Assembly (NCBI GenBank): GCA_964387665.1 | Contig: CAYLWY010000001.1 | Span: 10,075 to 74,074, forward strand | Direction: 5' to 3' | Source: an uncultured Candidatus Peribacteria bacterium | GTDB taxonomy: Bacteria > Patescibacteriota > Gracilibacteria > Absconditabacterales > Absconditicoccaceae | Length of the DNA: 64,000 bases | Shown: positions 838 through 6,234 of the stretch, piece by piece | Position numbering within the stretch: position 1 is the stretch's first letter | Layout: every line of letters begins with the position of its first letter | Position numbers and translations under genes: made by a program | The notes under the pieces: model-generated | The model's database searches: none | What the model was told of the DNA's origin: nothing | What the model saw: only the letters and a program-made list of their open reading frames with translations

Positions 838-1021
838 TAAATTCCCGGACGAAGAAAAGCGGCAGCCTACTTGTTTTGAGGACTGTCAAGAGGCGACTCA
901 AGATGCATGGCTTACTACCCTAGAGCGCCCGGAGCTTGAAAATCTGGCTAAAATGCTAGGTAGCACAATACGTGCAATTGGGGAGCTATCGGGGTTGGCA
1001 CGAAACGTAGAAGACGAATAG
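800..1021 (+). CDS. hypothetical protein
   Basis: Track ORF that overlaps the previous ORF by 38 nt, so the start is uncertain. The stop TAG 1019-1021 abuts the tRNA-like gene. Confidence 0.5.
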   Translation: MRRRNLSGIYIFDKFPDEEKRQPTCFEDCQEATQDAWLTTLERPELENLAKMLGSTIRAIGELSGLARNVEDE

Positions 1022-1100
1022 GAAGTTGGCGCAGTGGTAGCGTGTCGGTGGGCGAAAGCAACAAACCGAGAGTCGGGCGGTTCGATTCCGCCCACTTCCT
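1020..1100 (+). tRNA. tRNA-like gene, anticodon not assignable (oversized anticodon loop)
   Basis: The acceptor stem is AGGAAGT/ACTTCCT (7 bp), followed by T8. The D arm is GCGC-AGTGGTA-GCGT and the T arm is GGCGG-TTCGATT-CCGCC. The stem TCGGT/ACCGA encloses 15 nt (GGGCGAAAGCAACAA) instead of 7. No CCA is encoded. Confidence 0.55.
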
Positions 1101-1104
1101 TTAG

Positions 1105-1290
1105 AATATACCCGAACCTGCGGAATGTAGGATTAGAAGTGTCCATCATATAATGAGTTGGCCCCTTGTGGGTGCGTACGGTAAAAGCCAATCTCCAAGA
1201 AACTCACTACTGGAGATCGCACGTTGGGCGTAGTGACCCACGTATCTTGGTGTAACAACACACCGCAATAGGTTCGGGTATTTTTTTTTA
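1105..1290 (+). ncRNA. structured RNA candidate, family unknown, ending in a T9 tract
   Basis: There is long-range pairing between 1108-1123 (ATACCCGAACCTGCGG) and 1263-1281 (CCGC aat AGGTTCGGGTAT), followed by T9 at 1281-1289. Internal helices are 1191-1197/1211-1217 (ATCTCCA/TGGAGAT), 1172-1176/1218-1222 (GTGCG/CGCAC) and 1161-1164/1225-1228 (GCCC/GGGC). Confidence 0.4.
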
Positions 1291-1291
1291 T

Positions 1292-1403
1292 AGTCAGGTG
1301 GTGGAATTGGTTAGACGCTATAATAGGTCGCTACTATTATATTAGCAGATGGAAACAACCAAAGAAACAATCTCTGTTACAGGTTCGAATCCTGTCCTGA
1401 CTA
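1292..1403 (+). tRNA. tRNA-like gene (type II-like D arm) with aberrant anticodon and variable regions
   Basis: The acceptor stem is AGTCAGG/CCTGACT. The D region TGGTGGAATTGGTTAGACGC resembles tRNA-Leu/Ser. The T arm is ACAGG-TTCGAAT-CCTGT. Total length is 112 nt. A 7-bp stem ATAATAG/CTATTAT carries the loop GTCGCTA (position 37 would be T), followed by a 38-nt variable region. Confidence 0.5.
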
Positions 1404-1556
1404 CTAAACAAAACAGTATGAAATACATTACAATCCGAGAAGTAGACAATCCGGAGTGCGCAAATGCCGGCTCAAAAAAGAGACGTTTTTCAAACGGCGC
1501 GATGTGTATTTAAAAGAAAGAACACCTTATTTAACCAAAACAATAATCAAATAAGC

Positions 1557-2847: not shown

Positions 2848-3111
2848 ATGAAAACATTTCAAATTTGGATGGAGGGATACGCCGCAACTGGGGAGCGCGG
2901 TACTGCGAATATGATAGGTACCGGCCAAGGCGAGACCTTTGACGATGCTGTAAGAGATTACATGGCAAGAACCCCCAAACACGGAATTGAGGAAAACGGA
3001 CGAAACCGCTATATTAACGAAAGCGCGTATCAAAGACGCCCTAGTAATTGGAATATCTGGGGATGTAACCTATACGACAACGAAGCGGAAGCCCGAAAAA
3101 CTTTCGGTTAA
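2848..3111 (+). CDS. hypothetical protein
   Basis: Track ORF whose stop overlaps the next ATG (TAATG). Confidence 0.65.
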   Translation: MKTFQIWMEGYAATGERGTANMIGTGQGETFDDAVRDYMARTPKHGIEENGRNRYINESAYQRRPSNWNIWGCNLYDNEAEARKTFG

Positions 3112-3260
3112 TGAAAAAGAAGAAACCAAAGCAGCAGTCTGCCGTAAAGTGGAGCCTCTACAATACTGAGGAAGGATTCCGCCGGCAGAAGCAGACTCAC
3201 GAGTTAAGGAAAAACAAGAAGAAATACAAAAACGATTTTTTAAACGAAACTGACTTATGA
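3111..3260 (+). CDS. small basic protein, 49 aa (MKKKKPKQQSAVKW...)
   Basis: It fills the apparent gap 3112-3256. ATG 3111 overlaps the upstream TAA, and the stop TGA 3258-3260 overlaps the dUTPase ATG (ATGA). It is below the track cutoff. Confidence 0.4.
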   Translation: MKKKKPKQQSAVKWSLYNTEEGFRRQKQTHELRKNKKKYKNDFLNETDL

Positions 3261-3733
3261 CTAAATTAGCTGTTAAATTAATACCTGGGGGCAAGCTCCC
3301 GGTACGCTCTACGGAAATGGCCGGGGCATGGGATATGTTTGCGCGTTCGGTAGAGCTAAAGCACGATGATGGATATACACGCGCTATTATTAGACTTGGT
3401 TGTGCAATGCAACCGGCAGATCCCAATTACCGTATTATGTTACAACCTAGGTCATCTATTACCAAGACGTCGTGGGTTATGCAAAATTCCCCAGGCCTCG
3501 GGGATCCTGATTTCGACCAGGAGTATCAAGCTAGGTTTATACTAATACCGGGGGGAGAAGACGAAGACACGGAAAAGGCGCTTCGTAAGCATCCATTTAA
3601 CATAGGAGACCGTGTTGTACAAATGTACTTAGAACGGATTGAACCGATTGAGATCGAACTATTAGGCGAAGACCGGCCGCTTCCGCACCAAACAGACCGT
3701 ACGGGAGGTTTTGGATCAACTGGTAAAAAATAA
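3257..3733 (+). CDS. dut: dUTPase
   Basis: The five dUTPase motifs are recognisable: AGAWDM, QPRSS, GLGDPDFDQEY, DRVVQM and the C-terminal RTGGFGSTG. Confidence 0.8.
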   Translation: MTKLAVKLIPGGKLPVRSTEMAGAWDMFARSVELKHDDGYTRAIIRLGCAMQPADPNYRIMLQPRSSITKTSWVMQNSPGLGDPDFDQEYQARFILIPGGEDEDTEKALRKHPFNIGDRVVQMYLERIEPIEIELLGEDRPLPHQTDRTGGFGSTGKK

Positions 3734-3743
3734 TTTGTTTTAT

Positions 3744-4097
3744 ATGGCAGTAAATACTTATCTTTGCATTACTTCCTCAGACGAGAGGTTTACCTTAAAA
3801 GTAGAGGTACGCGATGCTTATGAATATGGAGAGGCGTTGTTGACGTTAGCGTTTGCTGACGAACGTCGGACTGTCTATGTAAATGACGCAGACATAATAT
3901 TTGGGCCTATTTTAAACCTAACAGAAGTAGCCTGTCTAAATATAGATTTGGATGGAGACGCTGCTGAACAACTGGAAACAGTTTATGGTATAAAACCAAA
4001 CGATGTCTGTGAACTGTGGGACATGTATTTAGAAGCAAAAAAACTCGGAATATGGGAAGATGATGAAGGGGAGTTACCCCGATTTAGTGACAACTAA
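3744..4097 (+). CDS. hypothetical protein
   Basis: Track ORF 3711..4097. The ATG at 3744 lies just after the dUTPase stop. Confidence 0.6.
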   Translation: MAVNTYLCITSSDERFTLKVEVRDAYEYGEALLTLAFADERRTVYVNDADIIFGPILNLTEVACLNIDLDGDAAEQLETVYGIKPNDVCELWDMYLEAKKLGIWEDDEGELPRFSDN

Positions 4098-4109
4098 AAG
4101 TAACGACGT

Positions 4110-4490
4110 ATGCGATGTCCCGCATGTGGAGGCGATATGCCTTGGGTGTTATCTGAGCTAGTAGCAGGGGCTACTGTAGTAATCTATTTGAAAACGGAAT
4201 CCGCAAGAGTGTTTTCTGGTACCGCAGTCCTAATACGACCGGAACCCTCTTGGCGAACACCGGAGCCTTATCCGATAGTCTTAAAGTGTAAGTCTTGTCG
4301 TCGACAAGTAAACGCAATAGACCAACGGTGGTTAGTGCAATATCCTGATGGATTTGTTACGCATCGTTGGTTGACAACATTAATAAAACCAGGAACAATA
4401 AAAATTGACGATGATAACATTAGTAACAAAGAACCGGAGGAGCTATTGGGAGACGTATGGGACGATAGCGGAGGTACTGACCTATTTTAA
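4110..4490 (+). CDS. hypothetical zinc-ribbon protein
   Basis: It carries CPACGG near the N terminus and CKSCRR about 60 aa later. Confidence 0.6.
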   Translation: MRCPACGGDMPWVLSELVAGATVVIYLKTESARVFSGTAVLIRPEPSWRTPEPYPIVLKCKSCRRQVNAIDQRWLVQYPDGFVTHRWLTTLIKPGTIKIDDDNISNKEPEELLGDVWDDSGGTDLF

Positions 4491-6234
4491 AGACCATACA
4501 CATATTGGATTTGACACGGAAACTAGTGGAATGTCTTTCATGGACTCTGATCTACTCTGTGTACAATTCGGAGATTTTGAGAGGCAATTTGTCATTGAGA
4601 TGGATGACGGGGTTCTAGACGAACTTAAGCCTCTGTTTGAGAAGACTTTGATTCTTCAAAACTCCACATTCGACCTTCCGTTTTTATATCAATACGGAAT
4701 AGTACCAAACATTTATGACACGCTTTTAGCGGAAAAAAATCTTACTCTAGGTCTGCTAGTAGACCGTGGACTGGGCGATCTAGTCTTGCGGTACTGCGGG
4801 GTAGACTTGGATAAGAGTAAGCAGAAAACTATCGTACAAGGACTTATTGATAGGGAGTCTATTGAATACGCCGGGTTAGACGTGAAGTATCTGATTCCTA
4901 TCATGGAAGCGCAGATAGCCCAAGCGGAGAAAGAGCAGGTAATTAACGCCATCACACTAGACTGCCGGTTCGCCCGGGTCGCTGCGTACATGGAGTTCTG
5001 TGGTATCTATGTAAATAAAGATGCCCTAGACAAGATGATCCGAAAAAACGAAGCCTACGAGTATATGGCTGAGGAGGCTTTGTATAAATGGTTAGAAACA
5101 AATGCCCCGGAATATTACGACCCAGAATTCAATTGGGGGTCGTCGAAACAGGTTGTAGAGTTATTTAATGCCTTGGGAATCCCGCCGGTGTACAACAAAC
5201 AGTCCGGAGCCCAAGGTTGTGATATCAAAGAGCTCCGTAAGTTAGAAGACCCAACCGGTTTGCTTAAACTATTTATCGACTATTCCGTTAAGAGAAAGAC
5301 GGTTTCTACATATGGTAGGAATTGGTTAGAGTACATATTTGACGACGGAAGAGTACATTCTAAATTCAATGTTCTTGTAGATACTGGTAGAACTTCTGCC
5401 GGGAATACAAGGCAAGGTCCCTTCCCTAATCTACAAAACCTCTCTAAAAAGGGAGGAATGCGCACAATATTTGAAGGTAAAGGCCCTAACCGGTTAATCG
5501 CTTGTGACTATTCCGGGCAAGAATCCGTAGTCCTCGCCGATATTTCTCAAGAAGAAAAACTGCTAGAGTTCTATCGCGGGGGTTCCGGTGACTTGCACTC
5601 GTTTGTTGCTAAGCTACTCTTTCCAAAAGAGCTGGGCGATGTCGAAGAAACGGCCGTAGCCGATACTCGTGGAGATTTACGGCAACTTGCAAAAGGCGCC
5701 AACTTCGCAGTGGCTTATGGTGGTACTGGATATACAATCTCAGAGAACCTTAACATACCAAGGGCGCTAGGAGACCACGTATACGAATCGTTTCTAAATG
5801 CATTCCCAGGACTTCCGAAGTTCTTTGAAGACAACTTCCAAGACACGGTACGCCGCGGCTTTGTACGTATTAACTACGTAACCGGCCGTAAACGTAAGAT
5901 TGACTTTCTCCAAGATGCCGTTAAACGTAACGACAAACGCCTGTTGGCGCAAATCAATCGCCTAAGTACTAATACCAAAATACAGGGTACGTCAGCTGAT
6001 ATTTCAAAAACAGCTGCGGTATTGTTCTTTGAATGGATTTTGGAGAAGAAATTATTTAACAAAGTTTTAATAAACAATTTTATCCATGATGAGTTGTTGG
6101 TGGAGTGCCACCAAAGTCGCGCGCAACTAGTTGCTGACGTGTTACAAGAAATGATGGAATTAGCCGGGACATATTTCCTGTCTACGTTACCATTGAAAGC
6201 AGAGCCTAAAATCGGAAAAGGATGGGCAAAGTAG
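4405..6234 (+). CDS. family A DNA polymerase with N-terminal 3'-5' exonuclease domain
   Basis: Exonuclease motifs are FDTETSG, NSTFDLPFL and YAGLDVKYL. Polymerase motifs are A (IACDYSGQESVVLA), B (RQLAKGANFAVAYGG) and C (IHDELLVE). The start is either TTG 4405 or ATG 4411. Confidence 0.9.
   Translation: MTMITLVTKNRRSYWETYGTIAEVLTYFKDHTHIGFDTETSGMSFMDSDLLCVQFGDFERQFVIEMDDGVLDELKPLFEKTLILQNSTFDLPFLYQYGIVPNIYDTLLAEKNLTLGLLVDRGLGDLVLRYCGVDLDKSKQKTIVQGLIDRESIEYAGLDVKYLIPIMEAQIAQAEKEQVINAITLDCRFARVAAYMEFCGIYVNKDALDKMIRKNEAYEYMAEEALYKWLETNAPEYYDPEFNWGSSKQVVELFNALGIPPVYNKQSGAQGCDIKELRKLEDPTGLLKLFIDYSVKRKTVSTYGRNWLEYIFDDGRVHSKFNVLVDTGRTSAGNTRQGPFPNLQNLSKKGGMRTIFEGKGPNRLIACDYSGQESVVLADISQEEKLLEFYRGGSGDLHSFVAKLLFPKELGDVEETAVADTRGDLRQLAKGANFAVAYGGTGYTISENLNIPRALGDHVYESFLNAFPGLPKFFEDNFQDTVRRGFVRINYVTGRKRKIDFLQDAVKRNDKRLLAQINRLSTNTKIQGTSADISKTAAVLFFEWILEKKLFNKVLINNFIHDELLVECHQSRAQLVADVLQEMMELAGTYFLSTLPLKAEPKIGKGWAK

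Follow-up and report, generated by a model that had tools for sequence, protein, structure and literature searches.

Small stable RNAs encoded within the tRNA clusters of phages T4 and T5 have been known for about fifty years, and we know of none to which a function has been assigned. In T4, rnaD (species 2 RNA, 119 nt, not tRNA-like) lies between tRNA-Arg and the tRNA-like rnaC (species 1). The T5 record (NC_005859) annotates six 'stable RNAs with unknown functions' in the tRNA region. RNAIII, RNAIV and RNA2H of T5 (NC_005859 30284-33083) each fold into a structure closed by a helix joining both ends, with ~8-12 pairs in RNAIII and RNAIV and ~17 pairs in RNA2H (172 nt, NC_005859 31808-31979). 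According to two papers (PMC3014915, PMC9697503), no role has yet been established for RNAC and RNAD of T4. An earlier note on the DNA analysed here, made from its sequence, had likened the context of a candidate structured RNA to that of phage structured RNAs near tRNA clusters, and T4 rnaD and T5 RNAIII, RNAIV and RNA2H are indeed precedents for such an arrangement.

The window, that is, the whole 64-kb stretch of DNA analysed, corresponds to positions 10075-74074 of contig C1, and positions below are those of the window unless prefixed by a contig or locus. C1 is 118,580 bp (~118.6 kb) long with a G+C content of 42.6%, whereas the other large contigs in the bin mostly have ~38-40%. It encodes a capsid protein with a distant likeness to Flavobacterium FpV4-type phage capsids, a family-A DNA polymerase (PolA) and a 3,404-aa ORF, from which C1 is read as a phage genome of Bacteroidota type, binned together with a small bacterial genome. 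The first 55 nt (C1:1-55) are repeated at the very end of the contig. This repeat points to a genome that is circular or terminally redundant. A 128-nt segment including these 55 nt occurs in two copies near the end, 535 nt apart (C1:117917-118045 and C1:118452-118580). A search with the capsid protein found only a 17.7-kb fragment and one relative (30% identity), and PolA 8-mers had no match in IMG/VR.

The genes around the candidate form a dense array of small ORFs, all on the + strand. Within this array, a cassette of 385 nt (1020-1404) contains RNA only, and the element (~1102-1290; ~185-190 nt; 186 nt for the protein-free stretch 1105-1290) lies in its centre (Table 1). As with the stable RNAs of phage tRNA clusters, a non-coding, non-tRNA unit is thus placed between tRNA-like genes of the same strand. 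The packing is tight: the TAG stop of the 73-aa gene (1019-1021) shares two bases with the start of tRNA-like 1, the stem of the element begins 6 nt past tRNA-like 1, and its T-run stops 2 nt before tRNA-like 2. Folding of 1020-1405 gave three independent domains, a cloverleaf, a stem-closed unit and a second cloverleaf. The 6-nt spacer after tRNA-like 1 is likely the 3'-processing site of that gene and would hence set the 5' end of the element. Over 1106-1283, closing helix included, the G+C content is 48%, against the lower contig-wide value.

Table 1. Features of the RNA cassette (window positions) and stem-closed units found upstream of tRNA-Leu-shaped genes at other loci
Feature	Position	Strand	Evidence or remark
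Last protein gene upstream of cassette, 73 aa	800..1021	+	ORF list; no family match
tRNA-like 1	1020..1101	+	ARAGORN with introns or relaxed settings only; cloverleaf in whole-cassette fold
Spacer TAGAAT, 6 nt, from tRNA-like 1 to closing helix	1102..1107	+	Sequence
Closing helix, 5' strand: ATACCCGAACCT + GCGG	1108..1123	+	Pair probabilities 0.83-1.0; inverted repeat
Interior ('cargo'), 139 nt; local hairpins including ATCTCCA/TGGAGAT (1191-1217)	1124..1262	+	Fold, shuffles
Closing helix, 3' strand: CCGC, AAU bulge, AGGTTCGGGTAT	1263..1281	+	Fold
T9 tract; U-tract of putative intrinsic terminator	1281..1289	+	Sequence
tRNA-like 2, tRNA-Leu-shaped, variable middle	1292..1404	+	ARAGORN with introns; shared 24-nt end
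Stem-closed unit, 235-250 nt	L072:3473-3707 (-)		Mutually unrelated to the two below
Stem-closed unit, 235-250 nt	L123:5006-5257 (-)		Mutually unrelated to the other two
Stem-closed unit, 235-250 nt	L179:581-818 (-)		Mutually unrelated to the two above

At default settings ARAGORN found no tRNA in the window, and it returned the two flanking genes when introns were allowed; both are real, as had been claimed, though aberrant. The acceptor stem, D arm and T arm of tRNA-like 1 are normal, and its 'anticodon loop' consists of 15 nt with a GC-GAAA-GC (GNRA) mini-hairpin. With such a loop in place of an anticodon, tRNA-like 1 cannot decode. tRNA-like 2 has a bacterial tRNA-Leu D arm, a 7-pair stem and a long extra arm. 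Its last 24 nt, the T-arm/acceptor end, were found in over 120 contigs of IMG/VR, often in several copies on one contig, and always paired with the same 5' end and with a middle that was highly variable in length and sequence. Only 22 of the 124 unique members of this tRNA-Leu-shaped family (loci L063-L182) were called as tRNAs. The acceptor/D/T frame is constant across the family; the middle ranges from 40 to >200 nt and differs between copies, of which there are up to six per contig.

In marine phage contigs (loci L043-L062) the final 24 nt of tRNA-like 1 are found again, and in L046 they form the T arm of a true permuted tmRNA. These marine relatives begin with GGGAGTGATAAGGTAAG, like the tRNA-like domain of tmRNA, have a G3:U70 pair, and carry a short variable middle, often with a GCGAAAGC hairpin. 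The 5' half of tRNA-like 1 had no match in IMG/VR. Directly after the marine tRNA-like genes, and before a tRNA, lies a stem-closed RNA of ~100 nt (L043:6446-6545, - strand, and six relatives), an analogue of the element by position. Its closing stem differs among the seven copies by one compensatory change from AU to GC and by one change from AU to GU, its inner palindromic hairpin varies (GAAGTACTTC, GAAGCGCTTC or GAAGATCTTC), and it has no Rfam match. Comparison of the element with two stem-closed elements of marine phages showed no similarity. Elsewhere on C1, the sole canonical tRNA of the phage is a tRNA-Cys (C1:9591-9662). A 9-pair hairpin, TTGCCAATG...CATTGGCA, followed by CTTT (C1:9553-9590, window -521 to -484), ends directly at the 5' end of this tRNA, and the order of stem, U-run and tRNA start is the same as that at 1281-1292.

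Analysis of the element itself showed that its two ends are joined by a long-range helix. ATACCCGAACCT (1108-1119) and AGGTTCGGGTAT (1270-1281) form 12 perfect pairs, and four more (GCGG/CCGC, 1120-1123 with 1263-1266) lie beyond the 3-nt AAU bulge, with pair probabilities of 0.83-1.0 throughout. The 16-bp helix described earlier was thus recovered exactly where it had been placed. It can be extended outward by three weaker pairs (1104-1106 with 1283-1285, p ~0.7), and the closing helix alone, capped with a tetraloop, has a folding energy of -26.3 kcal/mol. A U9 tract after the helix had also been claimed: nine T residues are present at 1281-1289, of which the first forms the last pair of the helix, leaving eight to follow it. 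The whole element has a minimum free energy (MFE) of -61 kcal/mol (z = -3.2), a value reached by 0 of 200-300 shuffles. The reverse strand folds equally well, and energy is therefore no guide to the strand; it is the U-tract, together with the co-oriented neighbours, that speaks for the + strand.

It could be argued that the helix is a chance inverted repeat in leftover DNA, with no role at the RNA level. Perfect 12-nt inverted repeats no more than 400 nt apart are expected ~1.5 times in a 64-kb window and were found four times, so repeats of this length do arise by chance. The other three, however, lie inside genes, and the closing helix alone lies in non-coding DNA, exactly between RNA genes, with four additional pairs and with one of the rare T9 runs abutting it at once. 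The stretch is also nearly unchanged in activated-sludge metagenomes from four studies. We therefore regard a chance origin as highly improbable.

A duplex of this kind could instead be a processing stalk of the RNase III type, in which cleavage of both strands would free the interior RNA. Such stems flank rRNAs and the early RNAs of T7, and a duplex is available here, of 16 pairs or of as many as 19 if the outer A-U pairs are counted. RNase III prefers roughly two helical turns, however, and the helix is shorter than this preferred length; the U-tract directly past it would also be left unexplained. This explanation appears improbable.

The earlier note had described a multi-helix structured RNA with helices nested inside the closing stem, and this part of the description was not supported. 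The nested helices are present in the sequence (ATCTCCA/TGGAGAT, 1191-1197/1211-1217; GTGCG/CGCAC, 1172-1176/1218-1222; GCCC/GGGC, 1161-1164/1226-1229), but are no better than chance. In the minimum-energy fold, GTGCG/CGCAC and GCCC/GGGC are replaced by other local hairpins. Folded alone, the interior gave an MFE of -33.7 against a mean of -35.1 for dinucleotide shuffles (z = +0.35), and its ensemble was more diffuse than that of the average shuffle. In these folding models, the signal of the whole element comes entirely from the closing helix. No GNRA, T-loop or other hallmark motif was seen in the interior. A 6-pair loop pseudoknot (1154-1159 with 1201-1206) was rejected as within chance by our own estimate, and a search for antisense targets in the phage or the bin gave only matches of up to 15 nt, at chance level.

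These properties raise the question of whether the element is simply a bulky intrinsic terminator or 3'-end stabiliser, which would end or attenuate the early transcript before tRNA-like 2 and the replication genes, the interior being a functionless spacer such as a decayed remnant. A stable, G+C-containing stem followed directly by a U-tract is what an intrinsic terminator requires, and the concentration of the thermodynamic signal in that stem speaks for one. Only two T9 runs follow strong stems on the + strand of C1, that of the element and that of a textbook intrinsic terminator at C1:93975-94011, which indicates that the phage uses such signals. Another possible stem ahead of the T-run is a local imperfect hairpin (1236-1279, -15.6 kcal/mol). 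The short loop of a terminator is missing, however: 139 nt separate the two strands, far beyond the usual 3-10 nt, and a simple terminator scan did not list the element. The plain terminator of the phage occupies ~35 nt, yet here 139 extra nt are kept in a genome that is otherwise tightly packed, which we counted in favour of a separate RNA unit.

No ORF on either strand matched any PHROGs or Pfam family, in agreement with the non-coding character assigned to the element earlier. The interior does contain a 26-codon ORF with an ATG start (1153-1233), which raises the possibility that the element acts in cis as a switch, be it an attenuator with a leader peptide or a sensor of a ligand. Translation of this ORF, or the interior fold, would then decide whether the terminator helix forms and so tune read-through into tRNA-like 2 and the downstream genes. 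Consistent with this, the 5' strand of the helix can pair with 1218-1232 before the 3' strand has been made (P(unpaired) 0.3). The ORF, however, overlaps neither strand of the terminator helix and has no homologue, the alternative pairing is much weaker than that of the terminator (-26 kcal/mol), and there is no Rfam riboswitch match. A switch is about as improbable as the processing stalk, if not slightly more so.

The earlier note had not recognised a family, and Rfam 15 gave no match in the window at the gathering cut-off. With E up to 10, cmscan of 950-1450 returned only matches of 12-14.5 bits, driven by the T arm of tRNA-like 1, among them weak matches to permuted tmRNA models at 1076-1129 (E = 0.077 and 2.9). 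These matches, and the identity of the 24-nt end of tRNA-like 1 with the permuted-tmRNA T arm of L046, would suit a divergent member of a named class, namely the coding piece of a two-piece tmRNA. The scores fall far below the cut-offs, however (14.5 bits against 70, and 12.1 against 47), and concern the T arm only; ARAGORN in tmRNA mode returned nothing, and tRNA-like 1 closes on its own 5' strand. The size of the element is near that of 6S RNA (~184 nt), but no 6S-type model matched at E up to 10, and a rod-like reading is possible by eye only. For a Y RNA/YrlA there was no Rfam match at this threshold, and neither the bin at large nor its phage contig has Ro60/TROVE (PF05731) or RtcB. For a retron msr-msd no model matched at E up to 10, and reverse transcriptase (PF00078) was not found in the bin, again including the phage contig; the usual partners of Y RNAs and retrons are thereby removed. 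HDV-like theta ribozymes adjoin phage tRNAs (PMC10879173), and one could trim the upstream tRNA here; up to E = 10 there was no match to any HDV-type Rfam model, however, and by eye no complement to the 7 nt after the tRNA end was seen. On these searches, membership of the tmRNA, 6S RNA, Y RNA and retron classes is largely refuted and a theta ribozyme appears improbable, and we assign minimal probability to the element being a member of any of these classes. A reading of the element as a MITE was likewise rejected.

To examine conservation, we turned to strain variants and related phage DNA. In a sludge strain diverged by ~2%, one change was found in the 281 nt of 999-1279, compared with 11 changes in 508 nt of coding flanks (one contig, low depth). 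The sole change, A1200G, lies in a hairpin loop, and none of the strain variants altered the closing stem. Our own Poisson estimate for this contrast is p ~0.02 from a single comparison, a weak hint that the sequence of 999-1279 may be under constraint. In strain variants the stretch is at least as conserved as its coding flanks, which counts against a bulky terminator. The T-run is T8 in two sludge runs/strains. In three sludge metagenomes, contigs with matches of at least 99% elsewhere all break off within the variable middle of tRNA-like 2 or shortly ahead of it (1280-1490), and one such contig continues with unlike sequence after 1470. These breaks would fit strain-to-strain exchange of the middle, though contig ends prove little.

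A related contig from a Saprospiraceae bin (L270) has the same gene order, with an HNH-like ORF, an exonuclease and PolA at 47%, 81% and 42% identity, respectively. Its HNH-exonuclease interval is fully coding, with unrelated small ORFs and with no RNA cassette, terminator or gap. This makes the cassette a dispensable, accessory insert in a region that varies. Since the same gene order persists there with neither terminator nor gap, no terminator is required at this boundary, which counts against the bulky terminator.

Searches for homologues of the element gave none. A blastn search of 900-1500 against 50,697 phage records found nothing; in IMG/VR, the 16-mer of the 5' strand of the closing helix had 41 matches, all by chance and in genes, and the 3' strand with T6 had 16 chance matches. 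Judged by these matches, neither strand of the closing stem appears to recur in IMG/VR. Neither nhmmer against the collected phage loci and the bin, nor a covariance model built from the single sequence and run on ~1.5 Mb of phage tRNA-cluster loci, identified a homologue, and the same model found only short hairpins of at most 11 bits in the tRNA regions of T4 and T5. No homologue occurred in the whole records of the nearest contigs, or in 400 genomes of the phylum of the bin and 400 of the family of genome G001. Many contigs encode exonucleases 80-86% identical to that of the phage; loci anchored on this gene were mostly unrelated and had no other neighbouring gene in common.

At four further loci, from phages binned with Flavobacteriales (L205, L210, L275 and L283, ~3100-5500), a tRNA-rich region surrounds a homologue of the 172-aa DEDD exonuclease, and the 300-750 nt immediately upstream of it are non-coding. 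A tRNA-like motif, GTGCCGTAGA...GAG(T/A)TACTTCG...T arm, recurs at these loci. Relatives of the exonuclease carry PF16473, an Rv2179c-like 3'-5' exoribonuclease domain. Together, these features suggest that the exonuclease serves in RNA 3'-end trimming.

Although no homologue of the element was found in these collections, its arrangement recurs. Among 119 tRNA-Leu-shaped genes of IMG/VR with enough upstream DNA, 10 had a stem of at least 8 pairs abutting a T-run directly upstream, compared with 2 of 357 control positions. In three independent cases (L072/L092, L123 and L179), stems of 11-12 pairs close 207-219 nt and are followed by T4-7, and the L072 unit starts right after a tRNA. On these predicted structures, the layout of tRNA-type gene, ~200-nt long-stem unit, T-run and tRNA-Leu-shaped gene recurs with unrelated sequences in other uncultured phages. 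The recurrence of long-range stems closing ~200 nt speaks against a bulky terminator, although plain short-loop terminator hairpins occupy the same position upstream of the tRNA-Leu-shaped gene in L063, L146 and L120 and speak for it. Weighing all of this, we consider the bulky terminator unlikely, though of enough weight to be the main rival, and rank it below a stem-closed RNA.

We give an even chance to the element being a small non-coding RNA, closed by its stem, released by processing at the neighbouring tRNA shapes, and both terminated and protected by its own helix and U-tract. The cassette would be transcribed from the + strand along with the upstream early genes. Enzymes of tRNA processing would act on the tRNA-shaped neighbours; their cuts would place the 5' end directly behind tRNA-like 1 and, where transcription reads through, the 3' end directly ahead of tRNA-like 2. 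The 16-pair helix with U8-9 would act as an intrinsic terminator, and the same helix would clamp both ends and so shield them against exonucleases. The product would be a stable RNA presenting the 139-nt interior.

A bolder extension is that the terminator-type stem is a natural display frame, parallel to the tRNA-Leu-shaped frame, and that phages swap unrelated cargo RNAs into either. The interior would then be an active cargo; one example would be a decoy or sponge aimed at a host factor of defence or RNA processing. We hold this tentatively and find it doubtful. If true, the 385-nt cassette would be a three-part, RNA-only accessory module and an undescribed system. An active interior would make such units a pool of exchangeable phage RNAs; an inactive one would serve as a warning that a strong folding score for a whole element can stem from a single closing helix.

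How, then, does the element compare with the described RNAs? Like RNA2H, RNAIII and RNAIV of T5, it is a non-coding, non-tRNA unit among tRNA or tRNA-like genes, with a helix joining its ends and a branched interior in the predicted fold, and RNA2H is nearly its size. The T5 RNAs, however, have no U-tract after the stem, and RNA2H has a strong folding signal overall (z = -4.95), whereas in the element the closing stem supplies all of it. In their record the T5 RNAs are annotated as stable, whereas the element is known here from sequence alone, and the two show no similarity in sequence or by model. The order in T4, of tRNA, non-tRNA small RNA and tRNA-shaped RNA, is that of tRNA-like 1, element and tRNA-like 2. 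T4 rnaD has no long closing helix and no U-tract and is not homologous to the element, and no homology to any described stable RNA of T4 or T5 was found. The folding score of rnaD is unremarkable (z = -0.83), and as rnaD is nevertheless real, a weak score does not rule out a real stable RNA. With intrinsic terminators the element shares a G+C-containing helix followed at once by eight or nine U; their loops are 3-10 nt, whereas its 'loop' of 139 nt makes the helix a long-range one.

By this analogy, the element is most likely one more small stable RNA of the kind that T5 and T4 keep in their tRNA clusters, and ordinary within its class. It would add to these T4- and T5-type RNAs an example from a distant, uncultured phage of Bacteroidota type, and one of clean design, in which a long stem would serve as both terminator and end-clamp, wedged between two tRNA-shaped RNAs unable to decode. 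Thus, judged by position and architecture, it is the same kind of unit as the T4 and T5 RNAs, with the added feature that its closing stem would double as a terminator stem.
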